DNA of 10,322 bases from a virus (taxonomy: Duplodnaviria; Heunggongvirae; Uroviricota; Caudoviricetes). The DNA is taken from IMG/VR virus record IMGVR_UViG_2913123054_000006, positions 1-10,322 of that record. One strand, given 5' to 3'. Positions within the stretch are counted from its first letter, which is position 1. Each line of letters starts with the position of its first letter. Of the stretch, positions 748-10,322 are shown in pieces. Below the pieces are notes generated by a model. That model was not told where the DNA came from, did no database searches, and worked only from the letters and a program-made list of their open reading frames with translations. The translations under genes were made by a program, and so were the position numbers.

Positions 748-1170
748 TTAATGAACAATGACAGAATCGTCGGAAGACCCACCGCCGCTGAAATGCGCTT
801 TCCGGTAAACGGCCTGAACTGCATCATCATGCGCATCAATTGCCGTACTCAACGCTTCCTGCGCCGCCAGTAATGCACGGCGTTCCAGGGTATCGAAGAT
901 GCAGAGTCGGTGACGCAGCTCGCGCGGAAGGATTGCCAGAATTGCTGGGATCAGCTTCTGAATTTTTTCCCTTTGCGCTTTTGTTTCACCTTTCAACCAG
1001 CGGTGATAGATGTTCTGCTGATTATTCCAGTCCTTGCCTGGTACCAGGGGCAATTCGCCGCCCCCCTGGCGCAGATATTCTTCAGTAATTGCGTTAGCGA
1101 CCCACGCCTGCCCTTTTTCGGCTGCCAGGGCTAACAGCACTGATTCGATGTGCTCATGCCTGATTTTCAT
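748..1170 (-). CDS. ydaT: YdaT-like protein (Rac-prophage YdaT family; toxic/regulatory partner of YdaS, reported CII-like)
   Basis: Track ORF, 140 aa, MKIRHEHIESVLLALAAEKGQAWVANAITEEYLRQGGG...; length and sequence match my memory of Rac YdaT. Lies immediately downstream of the cro-like gene on the same strand; its start overlaps the ydaS stop by 17 nt (1154..1170). Confidence 0.8.
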   Translation of the reverse strand: MKIRHEHIESVLLALAAEKGQAWVANAITEEYLRQGGGELPLVPGKDWNNQQNIYHRWLKGETKAQREKIQKLIPAILAILPRELRHRLCIFDTLERRALLAAQEALSTAIDAHDDAVQAVYRKAHFSGGGSSDDSVIVH

Positions 1171-1381
1171 GAATCACCTTCCCAGGTCGTTTTGCCTTAC
1201 GATATTCGTCATAAACTTTGGGGTCGTACTGAAGCTCCCCGCCAGATGCTTTTTGTAGACGCATCGCGCGACCTTCGGGAACCAGTTCTCCCCATTGAGA
1301 AACAGCAGATGGATCAACGCCAGCAGCTTTCGCCACTTTGGCCTTCGTGCCATAAAAATTAATTACGTCTGATTTAAACAT
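1154..1381 (-). CDS. ydaS: Cro-like small HTH DNA-binding protein (YdaS/Cro family)
   Basis: Track ORF 1154..1408. Preferred start is the internal ATG at 1381 (MFKSDVINFYGTKAKVAKAAGVDPSAVSQWGELVPEGRAMRLQKASGGELQYD...), preceded on the minus strand by GGGGGAG. Sequence pattern is close to P22/lambdoid Cro proteins (..DHFG..AVAKALG.S.AAVSQW.E..PE..A.RLE..T.G.L.Y) from memory. Divergent from the repressor gene across a 77-bp intergenic region. Confidence 0.75.
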   Translation of the reverse strand: MFKSDVINFYGTKAKVAKAAGVDPSAVSQWGELVPEGRAMRLQKASGGELQYDPKVYDEYRKAKRPGKVIHENQA

Positions 1382-1394
1382 CACTCCCCCACGC

Positions 1395-1407
1395 TTGAGT
1401 TTTCTCA
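1395..1407. promoter_or_regulatory. Candidate operator site 1: 13-mer TTGAGTTTTCTCA, identical copy at 1931..1943
   Basis: Exact 13-bp direct match between 1395..1407 and 1931..1943, read directly. Site 1 abuts the predicted -10 of the minus-strand ydaS promoter and is flanked by CTTGAG (1394..1399) / CTCAAG (1418..1423, 1428..1433) inverted hexamers. Confidence 0.45.
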
Positions 1408-1437
1408 ATATTAATCACTCAAGGAATCTCAAGTCAA
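1408..1437 (-). promoter_or_regulatory. Candidate sigma70 promoter for ydaS-ydaT (PR-like)
   Basis: On the minus strand: TTGACT (plus 1432..1437), 18-bp spacer, TAATAT (plus 1408..1413), about 20 nt upstream of the ydaS start. Overlaps the repeated motifs in the racR/ydaS intergenic region. Confidence 0.45.
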
Positions 1438-1458
1438 GGATTATTAAGATATCTAAAT

Positions 1459-1866
1459 ATGAACGAGAAAACTTTAGGTCAACGAATTAGAGAAAGACGC
1501 AAACAGGTTGGCTTAAGTCAAAACGATTTAAGCAAGGCTGCTGGCGTATCTGGCTCATCAATTTCATTGTGGGAAAGTGACCATACAGCCCCGCGCGGGC
1601 AAAATTTGCATCGCCTAGCCGAGGTATTGCAATGCTCACCGACTTGGATACTGTTTGGCGACGAGGATAAAACACCGGATCCCCCAGTTGCACTCAACAA
1701 CGCCTTAGACTTATCGGAAGATGAGTTTGAGATGTTGCGATTATATCGCGCACTACCAAAATCAGAGCAACAAGCACAAATCAGCGAACTTCGTGCCCGC
1801 GTTGAGAATTTTAATCGCCTATTCACCGAGCTACTAGAAGCTCGCAAACGTAATAAGCATCAATAA
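1459..1866 (+). CDS. racR: CI-like prophage repressor, XRE-family HTH (RacR-like); no peptidase S24 domain evident
   Basis: Track ORF, 135 aa. N-terminal HTH_3 signature QRIRERRKQVGLSQNDLSKAAGVSGSSISLWESD. Divergently oriented to the cro-like gene across a short operator-containing intergenic region (classic cI/cro layout). No in-frame upstream start (TGA at 1396..1398) and no Shine-Dalgarno within 15 nt of the ATG. Assignment as RacR rests on synteny with ydaS/ydaT, not on recalled sequence. Confidence 0.65.
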   Translation: MNEKTLGQRIRERRKQVGLSQNDLSKAAGVSGSSISLWESDHTAPRGQNLHRLAEVLQCSPTWILFGDEDKTPDPPVALNNALDLSEDEFEMLRLYRALPKSEQQAQISELRARVENFNRLFTELLEARKRNKHQ

Positions 1867-1933
1867 TCATCCCTTCATAAAAATTTAAAGCCTTACATTT
1901 CAATGTGTTGGCTTTATTTCACATTTAATATTG

Positions 1934-1977
1934 AGTTTTCTCATCAAAAACACTTGACCTGTAGACATGAGAAAACT
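1934..1977. promoter_or_regulatory. Candidate operator 2: inverted repeat AGTTTTCTCAT (1934..1944) / ATGAGAAAACT (1967..1977) bracketing a -35 element
   Basis: 11/11 perfect inverted arms separated by 22 bp that contain TTGACC (1954..1959). The left arm lies within the second copy of the 13-mer TTGAGTTTTCTCA (1931..1943). Confidence 0.45.
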
Positions 1978-1982
1978 AAATT
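1954..1982 (+). promoter_or_regulatory. Candidate sigma70 promoter (PL-like) driving the rightward small ORFs and possibly the kilR-recE-int block
   Basis: TTGACC (1954..1959), 17-bp spacer, TAAATT (1977..1982). First good promoter downstream of the repressor gene, embedded in the operator-like inverted repeat. Confidence 0.45.
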
Positions 1983-2054
1983 ACATTCCATCAAGACACC
2001 GCACGGTGTTCTCAGCAAACAGTTCCGCCACCCGGCGTTAAGGGGAGAGATAAG

Positions 2055-2189
2055 ATGGAGCATTACGAAGTAGTTCAGTATTTGATGGATTGTTGCGGTA
2101 TCACTTACAACCAAGCTGTACAGGCTCTACGCAGGAACGACTGGGATCTCTGGCAAGCAGAAGCCTCTATCCGCAACAACAAGATGTGA
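2055..2189 (+). CDS. Small hypothetical protein, 44 aa (possibly YdaG-like; below the ORF-track size cut-off)
   Basis: ATG at 2055 preceded by strong SD AAGGGGAGAG with 5-nt spacing. Translates to MEHYEVVQYLMDCCGITYNQAVQALRRNDWDLWQAEASIRNNKM, stop TGA 2187..2189. Position and length fit the small genes that follow racR in Rac, but I cannot confirm identity from memory. Confidence 0.45.
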   Translation: MEHYEVVQYLMDCCGITYNQAVQALRRNDWDLWQAEASIRNNKM

Positions 2190-2199
2190 GATTCGCAAA

Positions 2200-2355
2200 A
2201 TGCAAAAAATCGGCCTCGGCAACAACGAATCCCTGGTGTGCGGCGTGTTCCCCAACCAGGATGGAACGTTCACCGCCATGACTTATACCAAAAGCAAAAC
2301 GTTTAAAACCGAAGCTGGCGCACGTCGCTGGTTGGCAATACATTCAGGTGAATAA
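2200..2355 (+). CDS. Small hypothetical protein, 51 aa (possibly YdaF-like)
   Basis: ATG 2200, MQKIGLGNNESLVCGVFPNQDGTFTAMTYTKSKTFKTEAGARRWLAIHSGE, stop TAA 2353..2355. Weak RBS. Stop is followed 1 nt later by the start of the next gene (TAAaATG), suggesting a coupled operon. Preferred over track ORF 2090..2281, which has an implausible S/P/R/C-rich composition. Confidence 0.4.
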   Translation: MQKIGLGNNESLVCGVFPNQDGTFTAMTYTKSKTFKTEAGARRWLAIHSGE

Positions 2356-2356
2356 A

Positions 2357-2719
2357 ATGAACGAAACAGAATTAAAACACGTTATCGCTCTGCTTCTGGA
2401 GGATGCAAAGCGCCTCCAGCAGCTGGAACCAAATGCAGGCACTGAAGAACGAATTATTATGGCTAATAAAAGTCTACATTCTGCATATGATACAAATACA
2501 AAGCAAACAGATAAAAATATTATTGTTTATGGGCACAGCGTTAACAGAGAATTTGCTTACTTTGTTCTGGAAAAATATCAACCTACATTTTGCCGGATAA
2601 TAGAAGAACTAACATTAAAAGGCAAAGATAAAGAGTTTGTTGAAAATGCTGTGGCAACGGCAAGCGCAGCAGCCGTTGCCAGTATCAAATCAATGATTAC
2701 TCTAGCGATTAACCAATAA
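2357..2719 (+). CDS. Hypothetical protein, 120 aa, no recognisable domain; accessory gene in the repressor-adjacent slot
   Basis: Track ORF 2348..2719 begins at GTG; preferred start ATG 2357 (MNETELKHVIALLLEDAKRLQQLEPNAGTEERIIMANKSLHSAYD...) with AGGTGA 5 nt upstream. Visibly AT-rich coding sequence compared with the flanking genes. Hydrophilic, no membrane segments. 3' end overlaps the convergent minus-strand ORF by 11 nt. Confidence 0.6.
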   Translation: MNETELKHVIALLLEDAKRLQQLEPNAGTEERIIMANKSLHSAYDTNTKQTDKNIIVYGHSVNREFAYFVLEKYQPTFCRIIEELTLKGKDKEFVENAVATASAAAVASIKSMITLAINQ

Positions 2720-2888
2720 ACCCAGGGGGGATATCACGCTGAGGCGGGTTAAGAAGCTCGGTAAACTCCGCTCTCAGGCGTTGAACTTCTGAAATAAAAT
2801 CGGCTTCACTGCAATCCCAGCCTTTGGGGTGCTTAAGTCGCAAATATTCAAAAACTAACGAATCAATTTCATTCATATTGGATAGCAC
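2709..2888 (-). CDS. Hypothetical small protein, 59 aa, convergent with the 120-aa gene
   Basis: Within track ORF 2709..3080(-). Preferred start is GTG at 2888 (then LSNMNEIDSLVFEYLRLKHPKGWDCSEADFISEVQRLRAEFTELLNPPQRDIPPGFIG), preceded by a perfect AAGGAG at 7-nt spacing; alternative ATG at 2876. The long N-terminal extension back to 3080 has no RBS and Pro-rich odd composition, so I reject it. Confidence 0.5.
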   Translation of the reverse strand: MLSNMNEIDSLVFEYLRLKHPKGWDCSEADFISEVQRLRAEFTELLNPPQRDIPPGFIG

Positions 2889-2921
2889 AATTATTCTCCT
2901 TACTGGTTGTGTGAGAACTCC

Positions 2922-2949
2922 AGTATACCACCGAGCCTGAAGTGGTAAA
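2922..2949 (-). promoter_or_regulatory. Candidate promoter with extended -10 for the 59-aa minus-strand gene
   Basis: Minus strand reads TTTACC (plus 2944..2949), 16-bp spacer, TGgTATACT (extended -10, plus 2922..2930), about 30 nt upstream of the AAGGAG/GTG start. Confidence 0.4.
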
Positions 2950-3072
2950 AAGACAGGCGCACAACACGAAGGCGCATTTCCGATATCCATAAAGAGTCGG
3001 TCTTGTCTGTTAAATTTAAATGGTGGGAGTGCGCCTCCGGTTGTGAATAACAACACTGCTGTATGTAGTCTT

Positions 3073-3122
3073 GGCGGCATCAGTTTTTCTTGAAGTTCGA
3101 CTGATGTCCGCCCTTTTTAAAG
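3073..3122 (+). terminator. Candidate intrinsic terminator upstream of kilR (tL-like)
   Basis: GGCGGCATCAG (3073..3083) pairs with CTGATGTCCGCC (3101..3112) as an 11-bp stem with one bulged T and a 17-nt loop, followed by CTTTTT (3113..3118). The U-tract is present only on the + strand. Confidence 0.4.
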
Positions 3123-3293
3123 TGAATTTTGTGATGCGGTGAATGCGGCTAAGCGCACGCGGCATAGTTAAAAGTCATGTTAGTCCTTATTGGTTTGGGT
3201 GGGAAAGCCGACTGTAATTGTTAACTGGTTGCAGTCACCTGGAGGCACCAGGCGCCGCATCAACAAAGTTCATTTGTAAAAATGGAGATAATT

Positions 3294-3515
3294 ATGATTG
3301 CACATCACTTCGGAACTGATGAAATACCACGTCAGTGTGTGACTCCTGGTGATTATGTTCTTCATGAAGGCCGGACATATATTGCCTCGGCAAACAATAT
3401 TAAAAAGCGAAAACTTTATATTCGTAACCTGACCACAAAAACATGCATTACTGACTGCATGATTAAAGTCTTCCTCGGTCGTGATGGTTTACCTGTAAAG
3501 GCGGAGTCATGGTGA
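3294..3515 (+). CDS. kilR: KilR, Rac-prophage FtsZ/cell-division inhibitor
   Basis: Track ORF 3282..3515; preferred start ATG 3294 ([73 protein letters not shown], 73 aa) with GGAGAT 4 nt upstream. Sequence and length match my memory of Rac KilR. Confidence 0.8.
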
Positions 3516-3685
3516 TGACTAAGAAAATAAAATGTGCTTACCACCTTTGCGATAAAGAAGTTGAAGAAAGCAAAAGCATTACAAGATCACTTCATTTCAT
3601 GCGTGGAGTTATCCCAACGACGGAAATGAAAAAATATTGTAGTGAAATCTGTGCCGAAAAAGACCAGATGGCACACGAACTTTAA
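3515..3685 (+). CDS. ydaE: YdaE-like small zinc-binding protein (56 aa; below ORF-track cut-off)
   Basis: ATG 3515 overlaps the kilR stop (tgATG). [56 protein letters not shown], stop TAA 3683..3685. Four Cys arranged as C-x4-C ... C-x3-C. Sits between kilR and racC as in Rac. Confidence 0.8.
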   Translation: MTKKIKCAYHLCDKEVEESKSITRSLHFMRGVIPTTEMKKYCSEICAEKDQMAHEL

Positions 3686-3759
3686 TTAACTGAGTATTCG
3701 AAACTGAATTTATGCCAGCAATGGCAGGGATTCGCTCAACCTTAATTAAGGAGAAAAAC

Positions 3760-4035
3760 ATGATTACCAATTATGAAGCCACTGTTGTAACTACCGATGA
3801 CATTGTTCACGAGGTTAATCTGGAAGGAAAGCGTATTGGCTACGTGATTAAAACAGAAAATAAAGAAACACCCTTCACTTTGGTTGATATCGATGGTCCA
3901 TCAGGCAACGTAAAAACACTTGATGAAGGTGTCACAAAAATGTGCCTGGTTCACATCGGAAAGAATCTGCCCGCAGAAAAAAAAGCCGGATTTCTGGCAA
4001 CTCTGATTGCAATGAAATTAAAAGGTGAAATCTGA
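3760..4035 (+). CDS. racC: RacC (Rac-prophage protein of unknown function, 91 aa)
   Basis: Track ORF 3712..4035; preferred start ATG 3760 (MITNYEATVVTTDDIVHEVNLEGKRIGYVIKTENKETPF...) with AAGGAG upstream. Matches recalled RacC sequence and length. Confidence 0.8.
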   Translation: MITNYEATVVTTDDIVHEVNLEGKRIGYVIKTENKETPFTLVDIDGPSGNVKTLDEGVTKMCLVHIGKNLPAEKKAGFLATLIAMKLKGEI

Positions 4036-4042
4036 AAGAAAT

Positions 4043-4063
4043 AGCCTGCGTATGGCGCAGGCT
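4043..4063. other. GC-rich perfect hairpin between racC and recE (8-bp stem AGCCTGCG/CGCAGGCT, loop TATGG)
   Basis: Read directly. No U-tract follows on the + strand; a T-rich stretch follows on the - strand. Possible RNA processing/stability element or a terminator for antisense transcription. Confidence 0.35.
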
Positions 4064-4135
4064 TGAACAGTGTGTATCCGGCAAGATCATTCACTGAACA
4101 AAACGAATTTTAATCTGAGTTGAGGTTAAAAAACA

Positions 4136-7100
4136 ATGAGCACAAAACCACTCTTCCTGTTACGGAAAGCGAAAAAATCATCCGGTGAACCTGACGTCGT
4201 CCTGTGGGCAAGCGACGATTTTGAATCGACCTGTGCCACTCTGGACTACCTGCTCGTTAAGTCAGGTAAAAAACTGAGCAGCTATTTTAAACCTGTTGCC
4301 ACGAATTTTCCTGTCGTTAATGACCTTCCCCCTGAAGGTGAGATCGATTTTACCTGGAGTGAACGCTATCAACTCAGCAAAGACTCCATGACCTGGGAAC
4401 TAAAACCGGGAGCAGCGCCAGACGACGTTCACCATCAGGAGAATGCACCGGAAACCGAAGAACCGGCGGGAGGCCAGGAAGAAAACACACGGGCAGACGC
4501 TCACGGGGATTGCCAGGATTGCGAAATCCCTGTAGCCACACTCAGTCTTACTCATCGTTTCCTTCATCTCTTCTTTTTCGGTCGGATGGAAGATGGAAAA
4601 TACAGCAATCACGCCACGCCGGAACAGCGTAATAACGTCATCCGGATGGAGATGGATACGGAGGATAGCTACCTCCAGAGCCTGCTTACAGCAGTACGTT
4701 CTCATCCTGAACTGGATAAGCTGGCAAACCATCATCTTGGCAGGTTGGCGGAGTCGGTATCCAGAGTGTTTACCCGCACAGAAACCCGTCGCATCAGCCC
4801 TGCTGAATTCGACAAATTCATTTCCACCTGGATGAAAACTGATTATCTGGAGCAGGGATTACTGACAAAAGAGTTGGCGAAGGGAAATTGCGTATCTGAA
4901 ATCAATCGCACCCCGTCGGGCGCAAATGCCGGTGGCGGTATTCTTACCGACCGTGGCGAAGGTTTTGTCCACGATGATGCATCACTGGCGCGCGATGTAG
5001 CCACTGGTGTACTGGCCCGTTCAATGGACGTGGACATCTATAACCTTCATCCGGCACACGCTAAACGCATTGAGGAAATTATCGCTGAAAATAAACCGCC
5101 CTTTTCTGTTTTCCGCGACAAATTCATCACCATGCCTGGCGGGCTGGATTATTCACGCGCCATCGTGGTTGCGTCCGTGAAAGAAGCACCAATTGGGATC
5201 GAGGTCATCCCCGCGCACGTCACTGAATATCTGAACAAAGTACTGACTGAAACCGATCATGCCAACCCTGATCCGGAAATCGTGGATATTGCCTGCGGTC
5301 GCTCCTCTGCCCCGATGCCGCAGCGAGTAACAGAAGAAGGAAAACAGGATGATGAAGAAAAACCGCAACCATCTGGAACAACGGCAGATGAACAGGGAGA
5401 GGCTGAAACAATGGAACCGGACGCAACTGAACATCATCAGGACACGCAGCCGCTGGATGCTCAGTCACAGGTAAATTCTGTTGATGCGAAATATCAGGAA
5501 CTGCGGGCAGAACTCCATGAAGCCCGGAAAAACATTCCATCAAAAAATCCTGTCGATGCCGATAAATTACTTGCTGCATCACGTGGTGAATTTGTTGACG
5601 GAATTAGCGACCCGAACGATCCGAAATGGGTTAAGGGGATCCAGACTCGCGATTCTGTGTACCAGAACCAGCCAGAAACGGAAAAAACCAGCCCGGATGT
5701 GAAACAACCTGAGCCAGTAGTGCAACAGGAACCGGAAATAGTCTGCAATGCCTGCGGTCAGACTGGCGGAGATAACTGCCCTGACTGTGGGGCGGTGACG
5801 GGGGACGCAACATACCAGGAAACATTCGATGAAGAGAATCAGGTTGAAGCTAAGGAAAAAGATCCGGTGGAAATGGAAGGCGCTGAACATCCGCACAATG
5901 AGAATGCTGGCAGCGATCCGCATCGTGATTGCAGTGATGAAACTGGTGAAGCGTCAGCTCCTGTAGCAACTGAAATCATGTGGCCGTCATATTTCGAGCC
6001 TGGCCGCTATGAAAACCTCCCGAACGAGGTTTATCACTCCGCCAACGGAATAAGCAGCACGATGCTGAAGGATGCCCGTATCAGCCTGATGTATTACCAC
6101 GGACGGCACATTGCCGGAACTATTCCGAACGAGGAAAGTGATGTACTGCTGCGTGGGCGGATCATTCACAGCTATGTTCTGGAAACGGATAAATTCGCTG
6201 ATGAATATGCCATTCCGGTACCGGTTCCTGAATATGTGGTTACTACTTCTAGCGAACTGATCGCCATCATTAAAAAACACAATGCCAGTCTGCCAGCACT
6301 GATGACACCAGAGCAGATGAAAGAGTGGATCGAAAGCTACAACAGCACTCTTATACAGCCACTGTCTGTAAGTGCCGGGGCCGAAGAAACAGGCATCCTT
6401 TACGGTTCGCTTCCGGTGGAATTTCGGCGTATTCCTGAGGGGGAAAAACACACAGCATCAGCAATGAAAGCCTGTATTAAAGAATACAACGCAAGCCTCC
6501 CTCCTCTGTTGAAAACCAGTGGAGCACGGGAGCAGCTTCTGGATCAAATTGAAACTGTAGACCCAGAACTGGCAAAAAAAGAACGTGCTAAATCTTTGCC
6601 TTACAACATCAGTGGCACAAAAGAGCAATTAACCGAAATCGCACGGAAAATTCGCCCGGAACTGGTGACACTGGAGGACTGGCAAAAACGCCAGCAAGAA
6701 GAAAATGCCGGGAAAACGTTTATCAGTCCGGATATGTATGAACAGGCAAAAAATATTCACGCGGCACTGCAAAACAATACCGATGCAGCAAGGCTACTTA
6801 ACCACCCGGATCGCAAATCTGAAATCAGCTATTTCGGGTTTGATGAAGAAACCGGGCTGGAAATCAGGGTCCGTCCTGATATCGAAATCCGGCTGCCATA
6901 CGAAAGCATTTGCGCTGACGTGAAGTCAGTCAGCCTCGGTTATGTGCGACAGGAACGACTTAAAGATCGCCTGCACCGTGAAATTATTGAGCGTGATTAT
7001 CACCTCAGCGCCGCAATGTATTGCGATGTGGCAAACCTGGACAAATTTTTCTGGATCTTCGTCAACAAAGATGCTGGCTATCACTGGGTGGCAGTCGTGG

Positions 7101-7267
7101 AAGCCTCGCAGGAACTCCTGGAACTTGGTCGACAGGAATATCGCCGGACGCTACGCCAGATAAACGAAGCCCTGGAGACAAACAACTGGCCAGCACCGAT
7201 TACCGAAAGTTATACCGACGAATTAAACGACTTTGATCTTCGTCGTCTTGAAGCACTGAGCATCTGA
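4136..7267 (+). CDS. recE: RecE-family exodeoxyribonuclease VIII (1043 aa) with a divergent C-terminal PD-(D/E)XK nuclease domain
   Basis: Track ORF with GAGGT SD. N-terminus [26 protein letters not shown]... and the long acidic central region match Rac RecE as I recall it. C-terminal domain carries RecE-like motifs (..RVRPDIEI.., ..ICADVKSVS.., ..[21 protein letters not shown]) but differs from the K-12 C-terminus I remember (..CRCRPDKII.., ..IMDVKTT.., ..[22 protein letters not shown]). Confidence 0.9.
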
Positions 7268-7278
7268 GGAAGGACACA

Positions 7279-8331
7279 ATGAACGAATTAACTCAACAAG
7301 AAAATATTAACTCTAATGTTGCGGTTTTCAGCCCTCAGTCCCTGGCTGCAATTCAGACATTTTCCCAGGTAATGGCTTCCGGCATGGCTACTGTACCGGA
7401 ACACCTCCGGGGAAATCCATCAGACTGCATGGCCATCACCATGCAGGCGATGCAGTGGCAAATGAACCCTTACGCAGTAGCTCAGAAAACTTTCGTTGTG
7501 AATGGTGTGCTCGGATATGAAGCGCAACTGGTTAATGCCGTAATCAGTACTCGTGGGCCGCTAACCGGGCGTATTGAATATGACTGGTTCGGGCCGTGGG
7601 AAAAAATTATCGGGAAATTTGAAATCAGGAAGAGCGACAAAGGGAAAGAATATCGTGTACCTGGCTGGAAGCTGGCCGATGAAAACGGGATCGGTGTTCG
7701 TGTCCAGGCAACACTACGCGGCGAAAGTAAACCACGCGTACTGGAATTACTTCTGGCGCAGGCCAGAACACGTAACTCAACGCTATGGGCCGACGATCCT
7801 CGCCAGCAGCTTGCCTATCTGGCGCTGAAACGCTGGGCGCGCCTTTATTGCCCCGAAGTGATTCTTGGAGTGTACACCAGGGACGAACTGGACGAGCCAC
7901 AGGAAAAAATCATTAATCCGGTTCAGGAACATAAAAACACTTCCGCTTGCCGCGCGGAACGTGAAACAACAATTATTGAGCAGGATGCCGGGGAAAACTG
8001 GATCGATGCTTTCCGTGAACGTATTGAGCAGGCACAAAGCACCGGGGAAACAACAGCACTTCGCCAGGAAGTGGAAGATCATAAAAATACACTTGGCGCT
8101 CTCTATACGGAACTTAAAGGAAAAGTGGTTCAGCGTCATCACCGTCTCAATGCTATTGCCCGTATCGAGAAGATGATAAATGACCTACCTTCTTCAGGTG
8201 ATCCAGAAGCAGAACAAAAATTTACTGCTCTGGAAAATACGCTGAATGCTGCCCGGCCACATCTGGGTGAATTATATGAGGCGTATAAAACGACACTGAC
8301 AGATATGAAACCAGAATATATCGGCTCCTGA
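7279..8331 (+). CDS. Putative phage single-strand annealing protein / recombinase partner of RecE (350 aa); family not assignable without a search, not canonical RecT
   Basis: Track ORF starting 11 nt after the recE stop with GGAAGGA SD, occupying the position recT holds in Rac (recE-recT-lar). Sequence (MNELTQQENINSNVAVFSPQSLAAIQTFSQVMASGMATVPEHLRGNPSDCMAITMQAMQWQMNPYAVAQKTF...) does not match K-12 RecT or lambda Bet as I recall them. Functional call is by synteny only. Confidence 0.5.
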   Translation: MNELTQQENINSNVAVFSPQSLAAIQTFSQVMASGMATVPEHLRGNPSDCMAITMQAMQWQMNPYAVAQKTFVVNGVLGYEAQLVNAVISTRGPLTGRIEYDWFGPWEKIIGKFEIRKSDKGKEYRVPGWKLADENGIGVRVQATLRGESKPRVLELLLAQARTRNSTLWADDPRQQLAYLALKRWARLYCPEVILGVYTRDELDEPQEKIINPVQEHKNTSACRAERETTIIEQDAGENWIDAFRERIEQAQSTGETTALRQEVEDHKNTLGALYTELKGKVVQRHHRLNAIARIEKMINDLPSSGDPEAEQKFTALENTLNAARPHLGELYEAYKTTLTDMKPEYIGS

Positions 8332-8394
8332 TATTGACTTTGGCGGTGTAGCCTCACCGCCATCACAAAATTTTATTTTATGAGAGAAAAGACA

Positions 8395-8589
8395 ATGCGG
8401 TATGAAAAAGTCAAACCATGCCCTTTTTGTGGTTGTCCATCAGTAACGGTGAAAGCCATTTCAGGATATTACCGCGCGAAGTGTAACGGATGCGAATCCC
8501 GAACCGGCTATGGTGGAAGTGAAAAAGAAGCACTCGAACGATGGAATAAACGAACCACTGGAAATAATAATGGAGGTGTTCATGTATAA
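8395..8589 (+). CDS. ralR: Lar/RalR restriction-alleviation protein (64 aa)
   Basis: Track ORF 8380..8589; preferred start ATG 8395 (MRYEKVKPCPFCGCPSVTVKAISGYYRAKCNGCESRTGYGGSEKEALERWNKRTTGNNNGGVHV). CPFCG...C..C zinc-ribbon-like motif. Matches recalled Rac Lar. Confidence 0.85.
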   Translation: MRYEKVKPCPFCGCPSVTVKAISGYYRAKCNGCESRTGYGGSEKEALERWNKRTTGNNNGGVHV

Positions 8590-8770
8590 AATTACCGCCA
8601 CTATTGAAAAGGAAGGTGGCACTCCTACTAACTGGACAAGGTACTCAAAAACAAAATTAACCAAATCAGAATGCAAAAAAATGCTCTCAGGTAAAAAAGA
8701 AGCAGGCGTTTCCAGAGAGCAGAAAGTAAAACTGATAAATTTTAATTGCGAGCAACTTCAGTCCTCGTGA
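8582..8770 (+). CDS. ydaC: YdaC-like small protein (62 aa)
   Basis: Track ORF 8510..8770; preferred start ATG 8582 (MYKITATIEKEGGTPTNWTRYSKTKLTKSECKKMLSGKKEAGVSREQKVKLINFNCEQLQSS) with GGAGGTG SD. Overlaps the lar stop by 8 nt. Position matches ydaC in Rac. Confidence 0.65.
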   Translation: MYKITATIEKEGGTPTNWTRYSKTKLTKSECKKMLSGKKEAGVSREQKVKLINFNCEQLQSS

Positions 8771-8802
8771 ATTGCATTGTATTCAAATTAAAACTTCATA
8801 GC

Positions 8803-8818
8803 TGATTATTAATAATCA
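8803..8818. repeat. Perfect 16-bp palindrome TGATTATTAATAATCA upstream of xis
   Basis: Read directly; its reverse complement is identical. Lies 52 nt upstream of the xis start in the ydaC-xis intergenic region. Function unassigned. Confidence 0.6.
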
Positions 8819-8869
8819 ACATCGGGCGTCAATTTCAGTCTAACATTGGCGCCTGCCAGAGGTGATGCG

Positions 8870-9085
8870 ATGGCACAAGTAATCTTTAATGAAGAGTGGA
8901 TGGTTGAATACGGCCTGATGCTTCGCACTGGTCTGGGGGCCAGACAAATTGAAGCATACCGCCAGAACTGTTGGGTGGAAGGCTTCCACTTCAAACGAGT
9001 ATCTCCTTTAGGGAAGCCAGACAGTAAGCGAGGGATTATCTGGTACAACTATCCAAAGATAAATCAGTTTATCAAAGACTCATGA
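8870..9085 (+). CDS. xisR: Excisionase-like protein (71 aa)
   Basis: Track ORF 8846..9085 begins at TTG; preferred start ATG 8870 ([61 protein letters not shown]...) with GAGGTG 6 nt upstream. Small basic protein directly upstream of, and coupled to, the integrase gene (stop TGA 9083..9085, int ATG 9087). Length matches Rac YdaQ/XisR. Confidence 0.75.
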
Positions 9086-9086
9086 T

Positions 9087-10322
9087 ATGTCTAAATTACC
9101 AACAGGTGTCGAGATTCGAGGTAAATACATTCGCATCTGGTTCATGTTTCGAGGAAAACGATGTCGGGAAACATTGAAAGGCTGGGAGGTTACTAACAGT
9201 AACATTAAAAAGGCCGGGAATTTAAGAGCGTTGATAGTTCATGAAATCAACTCCGGTGAATTTGAGTATTTAAGACGTTTTCCCCAGTCCAGCACTGGGG
9301 CAAAAATGGTGACAACGAGGGTCATAAAAACGTTCGGGGAACTTTGTGATATCTGGACAAAAATTAAAGAGACAGAGTTAACAACAAACACAATGAAGAA
9401 AACGAAATCACAATTAAAAACACTCAGGATAATAATTTGTGAGAGTACCCCTATATCACATATTCGTTATAGCGATATCTTAAACTACCGGAATGAACTG
9501 CTGCATGGAGAAACGCTTTACCTGGATAATCCAAGATCCAACAAAAAAGGAAGAACCGTGCGCACAGTTGATAACTATATAGCCCTGCTCTGTTCGTTGT
9601 TACGTTTTGCGTATCAGTCGGGATTTATATCAACCAAACCATTTGAAGGAGTAAAAAAATTACAGCGAAACAGAATAAAGCCTGATCCGTTATCTAAAAC
9701 AGAATTCAATGCATTAATGGAAAGTGAAAAAGGACAGAGCCAGAACTTGTGGAAATTTGCCGTTTACTCCGGGCTTCGTCACGGGGAACTGGCTGCTCTG
9801 GCGTGGGAGGATGTGGATTTCGAGAAGGGAATTGTGAATGTCAGAAGAAACCTGACGATACTTGATATGTTCGGTCCCCCAAAAACAAATGCGGGGATCC
9901 GGACGGTAACACTACTACAGCCAGCTCTTGAAGCACTGAAGGAGCAATACAAACTGACCGGGCATCATCGCAAAAGCGAAATCACTTTTTATCATCGGGA
10001 GTACGGCAGAACCGAAAAGCAAAAACTGCATTTTGTTTTCATGCCCAGGATGTGTAACGGAAAACAGAAACCTTATTACTCGGTAAGCAGTTTGGGTGCG
10101 AGATGGAATGCAGCAGTAAAACGTGCTGGTATTCGCCGCCGTAATCCGTACCATACGCGACATACTTTTGCCTGCTGGCTGTTGACGGCAGGAGCGAACC
10201 CGGCATTTATAGCCAGCCAGATGGGGCATGAAACTGCGCAGATGGTGTATGAAATTTACGGTATGTGGATTGATGACATGAACGACGAACAGGTAGCTAT
10301 GTTGAATGCGCGGTTATCGTAG
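9087..10322 (+). CDS. intR: Tyrosine-recombinase phage integrase (411 aa) with N-terminal arm-binding domain
   Basis: Track ORF. N-terminus MSKLPTGVEIRGKYIRIWFMFRGKRCRETLKG (arm-type DNA-binding domain). C-terminal catalytic signatures: LRHGELAALAWEDVD (box I Arg), HTRHTFACWLLTAGANP (H-x-x-R), HETAQMVYEIYGMW (His/Tyr). 411 aa as in Rac IntR. Stop TAG is the last codon in the window. Confidence 0.9.
   Translation: MSKLPTGVEIRGKYIRIWFMFRGKRCRETLKGWEVTNSNIKKAGNLRALIVHEINSGEFEYLRRFPQSSTGAKMVTTRVIKTFGELCDIWTKIKETELTTNTMKKTKSQLKTLRIIICESTPISHIRYSDILNYRNELLHGETLYLDNPRSNKKGRTVRTVDNYIALLCSLLRFAYQSGFISTKPFEGVKKLQRNRIKPDPLSKTEFNALMESEKGQSQNLWKFAVYSGLRHGELAALAWEDVDFEKGIVNVRRNLTILDMFGPPKTNAGIRTVTLLQPALEALKEQYKLTGHHRKSEITFYHREYGRTEKQKLHFVFMPRMCNGKQKPYYSVSSLGARWNAAVKRAGIRRRNPYHTRHTFACWLLTAGANPAFIASQMGHETAQMVYEIYGMWIDDMNDEQVAMLNARLS

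Follow-up and report, generated by a model that had tools for sequence, protein, structure and literature searches.

Recurrent dyads around a DicA-family repressor gene as predicted operators of an immunity cassette in a Rac-like prophage

The motif copies on both sides of the repressor gene in this DNA very probably serve as the operators of a lambdoid immunity cassette that is DicA/DicC-type and lies in a Rac-like prophage, as judged by sequence comparison. This reading was carried by the sites and their geometry, the family membership of the two regulators, the conservation of the sites and their covariation with the repressor allele in the window (the whole stretch of DNA analysed, 10,322 nucleotides) and its relatives. 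Since operators lie at a PR/PRM-like and at a PL-like promoter, a single repressor would co-regulate both operons. An earlier note on this DNA had proposed such lambda-like (OR/OL-like) duplicated operators with one repressor for both operons, and site geometry, conservation and covariation support the proposal; its assignment of the switch to racR/ydaS had to be given up.

Results

Blastn against K-12 matched positions 1-1176 to Rac at 97% and 2013-2335 at 93%, and, apart from 1177-2012 and some further segments that have been replaced, the backbone was 94-98% identical to K-12 Rac. Segment 1177-2012 had no Rac match in K-12 by blastn, only short patches of about 85% to Qin dicC/dicA. The repressor encoded there was 55% identical to K-12 DicA, with 135 aa in both, and its residues 1-72 matched the N-terminal domain structures of P22 C2 (1adr, 2r1j; E=2e-15). 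Domain searches returned HTH families alone (residues 6-71 of 135), and an S24 peptidase was not found. Across a divergent intergenic region of 77 bp, the Cro-like protein hit Pfam P22_Cro (6e-18, 64.8 bits) and was 61% identical to K-12 DicC, while its likeness to YdaS amounted to 33% identity over 43 aa and a Pfam YdaS_toxin score of 22.8 bits, below the cut-off of 30. BLASTP of the repressor against K-12 RacR gave no significant alignment (best E=1.8). BLASTP and the curated family models, of which DicA and DicC were passed, thus ruled out a RacR/YdaS identity of the switch; from the leftward ydaS-ydaT operon of the earlier note, ydaT was retained and ydaS gave way to a DicC-family gene. 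By these comparisons, DicA-type character is confined to the immunity cassette, and YdaT as well as the backbone on either side is Rac-type. The rightward operon contained ydaG-like, DUF1391, the kilR region, ydaE, racC, recE, recT, ralR, DUF1187 and int. DicF had no Rfam match and the downstream genes were Rac-type; the element is not the Qin prophage itself. The repressor allele is common: of 5426 complete E. coli genomes, about 800 contained most of a 681-bp query that ran across the repressor gene and the operator regions on both sides of it.

Table 1. Features of the window, with strand and supporting evidence
Feature	Position	Strand	Evidence or sequence
YdaT (CII-like), second leftward-operon gene	748-1170	-	98% identical to K-12 Rac YdaT; Pfam YdaT_toxin
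Cro-like regulator, DicC family, 75 aa	1154-1381	-	NF007282, 155.4 bits (cut-off 130)
DicA/DicC-type immunity cassette in Rac-like backbone	1177-2012	.	Holds every operator copy and both promoters
Operator 1 (Oc/OR1-like), predicted	1395-1408	.	TTGAGTTTTCTCAA; perfect dyad TTGAG-TTTT-CTCAA
Leftward PR-like promoter, predicted	1408-1437	-	TTGACT (1437-1432), 18 nt, TAATAT (1413-1408); consensus scan
Candidate weak operator (Om/OR2-like)	1419-1432	.	TCAAGGAATCTCAA; 2 mismatches to dyad; operator 1 is 24 bp away
Candidate operator (Oa/OR3-like) or repressor-promoter element	1444-1457	.	TTAAGATATCTAAA; 2 mismatches; adjoins repressor ATG
DicA-family repressor, 135 aa	1459-1866	+	NF007257 'transcriptional repressor DicA', 236.7 bits (cut-off 101), full length
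Fourth exact 9-bp core copy, status uncertain	1465-1473	-	Within repressor codons 3-5
Terminator-like hairpin closing repressor gene	1886-1916	+	Fold of 1878-1925: -11.2 kcal/mol, z=-4.1
Operator (OL distal), predicted	1931-1944	.	TTGAGTTTTCTCAT; 9 bp 5' of rightward -35
Rightward PL/dicBp-like promoter, predicted	1954-1982	+	TTGACC (1954-1959), 17 nt, TAAATT (1977-1982); consensus scan
Operator (OL proximal), predicted	1967-1980	.	ATGAGAAAACTAAA; fills rightward spacer, overlaps -10
Conserved 5' leader of rightward operon, right cassette junction	1986-2046	+	92% identical to Qin leader
Rightward early operon, presumed under PL-like promoter	2055-10322	+	Pfam; blastn to K-12 Rac; neighbourhoods of identical repressor elsewhere

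Exact plus-strand copies of TTGAGTTTTCTCA were found at 1395-1407 and 1931-1943, and ATGAGAAAACT at 1967-1977 was the exact reverse complement of 1934-1944, both precisely where the earlier note had placed them. Positions 1968-1980 form an inverted copy of the 13-mer (12/13 matching), and a repeat search returned arms at 1930-1944 and 1967-1981 of 15 nt each, 93% complementary with a 22 nt gap. The core AGTTTTCTC occurred in four exact copies, all inside 580 bp around the repressor gene. While the repeat described in the earlier note is real, the actual unit is not a 13-bp word but a 14-bp pseudo-palindrome, TTGAG-TTTT-CTCAA (5-N4-5), and there are more sites than two copies and an inverted match. 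The A/T centre of the P22 operator consensus is comparable to that of this dyad.

One dyad, operator 1, adjoins the leftward -10 and spans the predicted start of that promoter; two others lie around the rightward -35 and overlap the rightward -10. In the divergent region, two weaker matches bring the PR-side sites to three at 24-25 bp spacing, both weaker ones with 2 mismatches. The match at 1419-1432 may be a weak operator. The match at 1444-1457 was invariant in 51 unique sequences, though it may not be allele-specific, since it is nearly unchanged in loci with a different main operator. The fourth core copy was rejected as an operator because it lies in coding sequence, where coding constraint could equally account for its conservation, and is missing from the 75%-identical Buttiauxella loci. 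Both promoters named by the earlier note were recovered as consensus matches; the leftward -35 was retained in Buttiauxella and other alleles, and the rightward layout with its operators recurred in K-12 and in each of the alleles compared.

An exact 13-mer repeat appeared somewhere in 63% of first-order Markov simulations of 10.3 kb, and three different 9-mers were each present 4 times in the window, so that repeat counts alone weigh little. Count-based tests of the 9-mer and 13-mer repeats over the whole window were not significant, and a location-specific shuffle test was used instead. When the intergenic regions on either side of the repressor gene (1382-1458 and 1867-2054) were shuffled with dinucleotides preserved, only 4 of 5000 shuffles shared a word of at least 13 nt between them. 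It is the location of the match, not its existence, that is unusual.

The earlier note had tied its reading to conservation of the motif in prophages with the same repressor and to covariation with the repressor allele, and both were found. Operator columns had a mean minor-allele fraction of 0.008 among 51 unique sequences of the same allele, whereas the 8-nt flanks reached 0.117 (Mann-Whitney p=6e-8, a value that overstates independence, as do all p-values here, because the loci are phylogenetically related). Operator 1 was near-invariant in these relatives amid variable flanks, and the dyad persisted in Buttiauxella loci where the repressor is 75% identical and the flanks have diverged. The downstream sites were conserved like the upstream one and, in all the alleles compared, covered the -10 and the spacer: 1931-1944 was kept in relatives, Buttiauxella included, and 1967-1980 was likewise conserved, next to a hypervariable 7-nt stretch that separates it from the -35. 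For covariation, 147 unique related loci were compared (72 of this allele and 75 others). A TTGAG half-site was present both upstream and downstream in 67 of the 72 loci with the helix S[G/D]SSISLWES and in none of the 75 with other helices, where these positions were taken by dyads of the TTAGC/TTAGT, TTAGA or TAAC type; the remaining 5 same-allele loci had one site with an extra mismatch. The recognition helix of the Cro-like protein shifted in step with the operator. One IMG genome has both alleles, TTGAG-type and K-12-type DicA. The motif was absent from K-12 Rac, despite its 98%-identical YdaT, and all sites lie inside the swapped segment, indicating that the motif is linked to the cassette.

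The terminator-like hairpin after the repressor gene was almost unvarying among relatives. The leader of the rightward operon is continuous with Rac from 2013 and was recognisable in distant loci. No Rfam family matched the leader at gathering or permissive thresholds, and a structured RNA in it was rejected, as RNAalifold gave two short hairpins with zero compensatory changes.

Discussion

From the conservation and covariation reported here, together with K-12 genetics (PMC3441716, PMC10448788), we infer that the repressor binds these sites; its repressing or activating effect and the route of induction are likewise proposed from sequence. A dimer of the 135-aa repressor would read TTGAG-N4-CTCAA dyads, with an A-tract at the centre, through its P22 C2-type N-terminal HTH. 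P22 repressor uses indirect readout of four non-contacted central base pairs (PMC4267663), and the A/T-tract centre is consistent with indirect readout at the four central positions. In a lysogen, repressor at 1395-1408, on the -10/+1 edge, would block the leftward operon (cro-like gene, ydaT and replication). It may also boost its own transcription there, by analogy with K-12 DicA, which occupies Oc in vivo, keeps dicC repressed and stimulates dicA (PMC3441716). Repressor at 1967-1980 and 1931-1944 would block the rightward promoter and with it ydaG, ydaF, kilR, recET, ralR and int. With opposite effect, these sites are presumably also used by the DicC-like Cro protein. Because the repressor has no peptidase domain, induction would proceed by way of an antirepressor or an unstable repressor, and not by RecA-mediated cleavage.

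It is improbable that the sites are used by the Cro-like DicC protein alone, or that the leftward site is the sole true repressor operator and the downstream copies are relics. For K-12, direct binding of DicA was shown for Oc alone, Om and Oa being unbound (PMC3441716), and for the DicA site at dicB the evidence is graded as low and the location given as unknown (PMC7567609); the experimental anchor on the PL side is therefore genetic, not physical. The DicC-like helix also covaries with the operator, no less than the repressor helix, and the two proteins are indistinguishable as binders of these sites. However, deletion of dicA in K-12 derepressed dicBp 22-fold and deletion of dicC did not (PMC10448788), and the downstream sites equal the upstream one in conservation and position across alleles.

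Binding by YdaT, the CII-like product of the leftward operon, in place of the repressor/Cro pair is very improbable. K-12 YdaT, nearly identical to the protein here, does bind between racR and ydaS, at three operators (PMC11879457). However, it recognises an 18-bp TTGATT-N6-AATCAA, which differs in sequence and geometry (PMC9986795, PMC11879457), and K-12 Rac with nearly the same YdaT carries zero motif copies, the motif going instead with the DicA/DicC cassette and the recognition helices encoded in it. A search for YdaT boxes gave best matches at 1160-1177, 4888-4905 and 8802-8819, not above shuffles and not at the motif.

We give just as little credence to the inverted pair 1930-1944/1967-1981 being an RNA hairpin, for termination or stability, in read-through transcripts of the repressor gene rather than protein-binding DNA. 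The arms do fold into an 11-bp stem (-11.8 kcal/mol, z=-3.0), but no T-run follows it, and the stronger hairpin at 1886-1916 already ends the repressor gene. Transcripts from the rightward promoter are predicted to start 3' of both arms. Each site is itself a dyad, the copy at 1395 is without a nearby partner in non-coding DNA, and in other alleles, such as L012, the downstream sites are direct and not inverted, so that there is no conserved hairpin.

Least probable of all is a functionless coincidence in A/T-rich intergenic DNA, which could draw on the simulated 13-mer repeats, the equally frequent 9-mers and consensus promoter-scan counts not above shuffles, but which is opposed by the intergenic shuffle test, the third, inverted copy, the conservation of the sites amid hypervariable flanks and in Buttiauxella, and their covariation with the repressor allele, while Buttiauxella, Citrobacter and Yersinia loci speak against descent of the loci from a single recent clone.

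The reading of the motif copies as operators of the DicA/DicC-type cassette corrects an annotation trap, in that a mostly Rac-like prophage stands under a DicA/DicC-type switch and not under RacR. The results on RacR essentiality, the RacR operator and C-protein cross-talk are not transferable to it for this reason. The comparative data place the expected DicA-family site at the dicBp-type promoter, where the K-12 location is listed as unknown with low evidence (PMC7567609). No description of the exact motif was found in the searchable literature, and the TTGAG-T4-CTCAA operator specificity is apparently undescribed. It is possible, though we hold it at less than even confidence, that the allele represents an undescribed specificity orthogonal to K-12 DicA (TTAGT-N4-ACTAA), that a recognition code could be derived from the allele series and that a loop might bridge the operator sets. 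These sets are about 0.54 kb apart and enclose just the repressor gene, which might allow a repressor loop. If this held, several DicA-type prophages could coexist in one cell with no cross-repression, and the helices S-G-S-S-I-S-L-W, S-H-V-S-V-S-Q-W, A-H-V-T-I-S-Q-W and S-K-S-S-V-S-V-F-K-W, set against their dyads, would form a readable code covering a family of small non-cleavable repressors. The loci provide a small natural set of helix/operator pairs usable for orthogonal repressor design. No new regulatory principle is revealed, and the two-promoter arrangement is not new, having been documented already for lambda-like phages and for Qin of E. coli.

Compared with K-12 Rac, the backbone and gene order are the same and ydaT is 98% identical; there too the repressor gene lies between divergent PR-like and PL-like promoters (PMC5700373, PMC9638921, PMC11879457), and dyads TTAGGCATAGCCTA and TTAGGCATTACCTA 3' of racR flank the -35 and fill the spacer. 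However, RacR has 158 aa and no detectable similarity to this repressor, YdaS is distantly related to the Cro-like protein here, and the motif is absent. With lambda, the element shares a divergent PR/PRM-like region with about three operator matches at about 24-bp spacing and a second operator set at a PL-like promoter beyond the repressor gene. It differs in its 135-aa repressor, whose short C-terminal part is not a peptidase, in contrast to the S24 autopeptidase/oligomerisation domain of an SOS-inducible lambda-type repressor, in having two detected PL-side sites that are 36 bp apart and not adjacent, and in the distance between operator regions (536-572 bp vs 2.3 kb in lambda). The likeness to P22 lies in the repressor N-terminal domain, homologous to C2, and in a dyad of 5 contacted, 4 central and 5 contacted base pairs with an A/T centre (PMC4267663).

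For CP-933P, a cryptic lambdoid prophage of E. coli O157:H7, the equivalent co-regulation at PL933P/OL was shown experimentally: the Cro footprint overlaps that of the repressor in the divergent region, and similar operators occur at a second promoter, which is co-regulated (PMC8630535). In contrast to the system here, PaaR2 has low sequence similarity to CI and DicA, the PaaR2/YdaS/YdaT operators are 18-bp repeats (consensus GTTTAGTAA), and the PaaR2 gene heads a toxin-antitoxin operon (PMC8630535).

In the Qin prophage, Oc/dicCp and dicBp have been described since 1986-88 and were recently restudied (PMC3441716, PMC10448788). Both regulators are homologous to those here, and K-12 Oc (TTGTTAGTCATAACTAACAA) has the same register as 1395-1408, after the cro-side -10 TATCTT. 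K-12 dicBp shares the -35 TTGACC and the 17-nt spacing with the rightward promoter, TTAGTCATGGCTAA in its spacer is equivalent to 1967-1980, and another operator lies 5' of the -35. Three divergent-region sites about 25 bp apart, the conserved leader and a repressor without a RecA-cleavage domain are also shared. The differences are the operator, TTGAG-T4-CTCAA here vs TTAGT-N4-ACTAA in K-12, the recognition helix (SGSSISLWES vs SHVSVSQWER), the rightward operon, which is Rac-type here (kilR, recET, ralR, int) and dicF-dicB in Qin, and the Rac ydaT in the leftward operon. The layout is the known dicCp/dicBp (PR/PL-like) architecture with another operator specificity.

Gene identity and mosaic backbone

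The switch genes proved to be other than racR and ydaS, as which they had been named in the earlier note. The repressor had no detectable similarity to K-12 RacR; it scored 236.7 bits against the NCBIfam model 'transcriptional repressor DicA' (cut-off 101) and was 55% identical to K-12 DicA, both being 135 aa long. Its residues 1-72 matched structures of the P22 C2 N-terminal domain (1adr, 2r1j; E=2e-15). The Cro-like protein was 61% identical to K-12 DicC and only 33% identical to YdaS, over 43 residues. With the DicA and DicC models passed (Table), the racR/ydaS assignment was rejected.

Table. Features of the immunity region
Feature	Position	Strand	Description
Repressor gene	1459-1866	+	135 aa, HTH_3 protein
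Cro-like gene	1154-1381	-	DicC model 155.4 bits, cut-off 130
YdaT gene	next leftward gene		98% identity to K-12 Rac YdaT
Leftward promoter	TTGACT 1437-1432, 18 nt, TAATAT 1413-1408	-	consensus scan
Rightward promoter	TTGACC 1954-1959, 17 nt, TAAATT 1977-1982	+	consensus scan
Dyad 1	1395-1408		TTGAG-TTTT-CTCAA; perfect 5-N4-5, A-tract centre
Downstream dyad	1931-1944		TTGAG-TTTT-CTCAT
Downstream dyad	1967-1980		ATGAG-AAAA-CTAAA

In blastn against K-12 Rac and Qin, 1-1176, 2013-2335, 2927-4437, 4856-5965 and 8341-10322 were Rac at 93-97%, and 1177-2012, which contains all motif copies and both promoters, was replaced relative to Rac, with just short patches of ~85% to Qin dicC/dicA. A DicA/DicC cassette on a Rac-type background is lambdoid mosaicism of the ordinary kind. 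In this otherwise Rac-like prophage, the exchange took in the entire immunity cassette: cro-like gene, operators, repressor, terminator and PL-like promoter. One junction lies near 1176, at the ydaT start, and the other near 2013, in a leader whose sequence is conserved in both Rac and Qin. There was no blastn match to K-12 Rac in 2336-2926, 4438-4855 and 5966-8340.

The rightward genes were of Rac type (DUF1391, the kilR region, ydaE, racC, recE, recT, ralR/Lar with the RalA sRNA, DUF1187 and integrase), and the operon therefore does lead toward kilR-recE-int, as had been proposed. At the sieB position were two unannotated 123-aa ORFs, 2348-2719 (+) and 2709-3080 (-), neither with a Pfam or NCBIfam match. 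RecE (1043 aa) and RecT (350 aa) were longer alleles than those of K-12. The RalA antitoxin sRNA (Rfam RF02694, 210.8 bits; 8588-8766, -) lay directly downstream of a Lar/RalR-family ORF (8380-8589, +) and antisense to the DUF1187 ORF; sRNA and Lar/RalR ORF are the Rac type I toxin-antitoxin pair.

Motif copies and promoters

Read directly from the window, the motif and inverted-repeat coordinates claimed earlier were exact. TTGAGTTTTCTCA occurred without mismatch at 1395-1407 and 1931-1943, both on the + strand, with a 12/13 copy on the - strand at 1968-1980. ATGAGAAAACT (1967-1977) was the exact complement of 1934-1944, and a repeat search extended the inverted arms to 15 nt (1930-1944 and 1967-1981, 93% complementary, gap 22 nt). 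The 9-bp core AGTTTTCTC had four exact copies in the window, at 1398, 1465 (-), 1934 and 1969 (-).

A consensus scan of 1100-2400 returned exactly two promoter-like sites, the same two that had been named before. From the positions of their hexamers, the first motif copy adjoins the leftward -10, and the two downstream copies bracket the rightward -35, the second overlapping the -10. Between the repressor gene and the rightward promoter, just 3' of the repressor stop, a conserved terminator-like hairpin was found at 1886-1916 (-11.2 kcal/mol, z=-4.1), which a simple terminator scan did not pick up.

When two mismatches were allowed, the dyad pattern added 1419-1432 and 1444-1457; the divergent intergenic region then held three matches 24-25 bp apart, two of them needing two mismatches, and the count of this loose pattern across the window was not above chance. 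The site at 1444-1457, TTAAGATATCTAAA, adjoined the repressor ATG, where there was no Shine-Dalgarno sequence. It was invariant in 51 unique relatives and nearly unchanged in loci with a different main operator. The site may be Oa/OR3-like, or it may belong to a PRM-like promoter from which the repressor mRNA would be transcribed without a leader; the cI and paaR2 mRNAs are both leaderless (PMC8630535).

At its 5' end the rightward operon has a leader (1986-2046, CACCGCACGGTG ... GTTCCGCCACCCGGCGTTAAGGGG) that shares 92% identity with that of Qin ydfA and from 2013 on is continuous with Rac. It could also be recognised in loci of Buttiauxella and Citrobacter and in others more distant. RNAalifold gave two short hairpins with one-sided changes only, and no Rfam family matched the leader, which may represent an RNA element or a joint for recombination.

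Conservation and covariation with the repressor allele

Repeat counts alone were not beyond chance: among first-order Markov simulations of the window, 63% contained some exact 13-mer repeat and 71% a 9-mer present at least four times, and two unrelated 9-mers likewise occurred four times in the real window. The non-coding stretches flanking the repressor gene (1382-1458 and 1867-2054) were also shuffled with dinucleotides preserved. They shared a word of at least 13 nt in 4/5000 trials, and the repeat is thus unusual by its location, not by its existence.

Relatives came from three sets: 13 loci collected with the repressor (45-95% identity) from one-genome-per-species contigs, including Buttiauxella, Citrobacter, Yersinia, Rosenbergiella and Symbiopectobacterium; 80 nearly identical IMG/VR loci; and 160 further loci obtained with two other alleles as queries. 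The three strong sites were almost invariant among 51 unique window-allele sequences, and the most variable bases of the region adjoined them (1391-1394, 1409-1413, 1946-1953, 1960-1966 and 1984-1989). Over the 42 operator columns the minor-allele fraction averaged 0.008; it was higher both in the flanks of 8 nt (0.117, p=6e-8) and in the other non-coding columns (0.044, p=0.004). Buttiauxella loci, with a repressor ~75% identical and a diverged intergenic sequence, yet carried TTGAGTTTTCTCAA and CTGAGTTTTCTCAA on either side, at unchanged offsets.

Loci were grouped by helix-turn-helix segment, and for each locus the dyad half-sites present in both its upstream and its downstream region were taken. 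TTGAG was common to both sides in 67/72 loci with the window helix S[G/D]SSISLWES, the five exceptions retaining the sites with one extra mismatch each, and in 0/75 loci of other classes (Fisher p=2e-36, in which independence is overstated, the loci being related). TTAGC/TTAGT accompanied the K-12-type helix SHVSVSQWER (22/22 loci), TTAGA the helix AHVTISQWET (28/29), and TAAC-type dyads the helix SKSSVSVFKWE (both loci). The Cro-like recognition helix varied in step (GVDPSAVSQW in the window and Buttiauxella versus GIRLASLYSW in K-12). The motif is thus conserved in prophages with the same repressor, and by sequence its covariation with the allele is as expected of operators travelling with their repressor in an immunity cassette. 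A chance repeat is contradicted by the positional shuffle, the site conservation and this covariation.

Both alleles were found in IMG genome 2913112809 (loci L015 and L232, contigs _000003 and _000004), one a 100%-identical repressor with TTGAG operators, the other a K-12-type DicA with TTAGC/TTAGT, which is compatible with coexisting heteroimmune DicA-family prophages. The window repressor allele is common in E. coli: 797/5426 complete genomes contained 80% or more of a 681-bp query that covers the repressor gene plus the two operator regions, a single genome having up to 5-6 matching places, and the identical repressor protein with the same neighbours recurred in several assemblies.

Binding by YdaT or host factors is excluded by the same covariation. 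The site of YdaT is TTGATT-N6-AATCAA and not a TTGAG dyad (PMC9986795, PMC11879457), and the motif is absent from K-12 Rac, whose YdaT is the same. YdaT-box matches in the window were not enriched over shuffles, and the best in the immunity region, CTGATTTTCATGAATCAC (1160-1177, 2 mismatches), spanned the ydaT start codon. The 1930/1967 arms might instead act as an RNA hairpin, and they do fold (-11.8 kcal/mol); however, the predicted transcript starts downstream of this hairpin, each arm by itself forms a dyad, and the inverted arrangement is not retained in other alleles.

Proposed mechanism and comparison with known switches

As operators, the sites would be bound by a repressor dimer whose P22 C2-like HTH contacts the outer 5 bp of each half-site, the central TTTT/AAAA being read indirectly; in P22 repressor the four central base pairs are not contacted and A/T-tract centres are preferred (PMC4267663). 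Occupancy of 1395-1408 would block the leftward cro-like/ydaT/replication operon and, by analogy with K-12 Oc, may also activate the repressor gene, the distance from site centre to repressor ATG being 57.5 bp (~59 bp in K-12). Repressor on 1967-1980 would cover the rightward promoter at its spacer and -10, and binding at 1931-1944 may contribute cooperativity or prevent contacts further upstream. The Cro-like protein would act at the same sites. Since the HTH was the only domain detected in the repressor, RecA cleavage would not be the induction route; antirepressor action or repressor instability, a type of induction reported for DicA (PMC10448788), is more likely.

In K-12 Qin, the dicC-side promoter TTGACT-17-TATCTT is directly followed by Oc, TTGTTAGTCATAACTAACAA. 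DicA binds Oc in vivo, repressing dicC and activating dicA, and one base change abolishes binding (PMC3441716). The region 3' of dicA reads TTAGCTATAGCATA - 9 nt - TTGACC - 6 nt - TTAGTCATGGCTAA; this is dicBp, whose -10 overlaps the second dyad. According to PMC10448788, deletion of dicA derepressed dicBp 22-fold, and this promoter is PL-like, its operators being similar to those of dicCp (citing Bejar et al. 1988). Less probably, the sites serve the Cro-like protein only, or the downstream copies are non-functional: direct binding evidence in K-12 concerns Oc only, Om and Oa not being bound by DicA (PMC3441716), and the DicA site at dicB is a low-evidence listing of unknown location (PMC7567609).

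The promoter 3' of racR in K-12 Rac (locus L096, ~7960-8260) was laid out in the same way, the dyads being those of Rac: TTAGGCATAGCCTA adjoined a TTGACA -35, and the spacer, as far as TATAGT, was taken up by TTAGGCATTACCTA. A counterpart of PL under RacR control may thus lie upstream of ydaG.

The earlier observation was confirmed, and its OR/OL-like interpretation was right in principle, although attached to the wrong genes; given the Qin-like layout, that picture was already established for the DicA family. A search of 8 million full texts did not find this operator sequence, which, judged from the dyads, differs from K-12 DicA specificity in an architecture already known. A co-regulated PL/OL has been shown experimentally, and independently, in CP-933P (PMC8630535). 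Between the window and Qin the layout, the TTGACC -35 and the leader are shared, whereas the dyad sequence is different.
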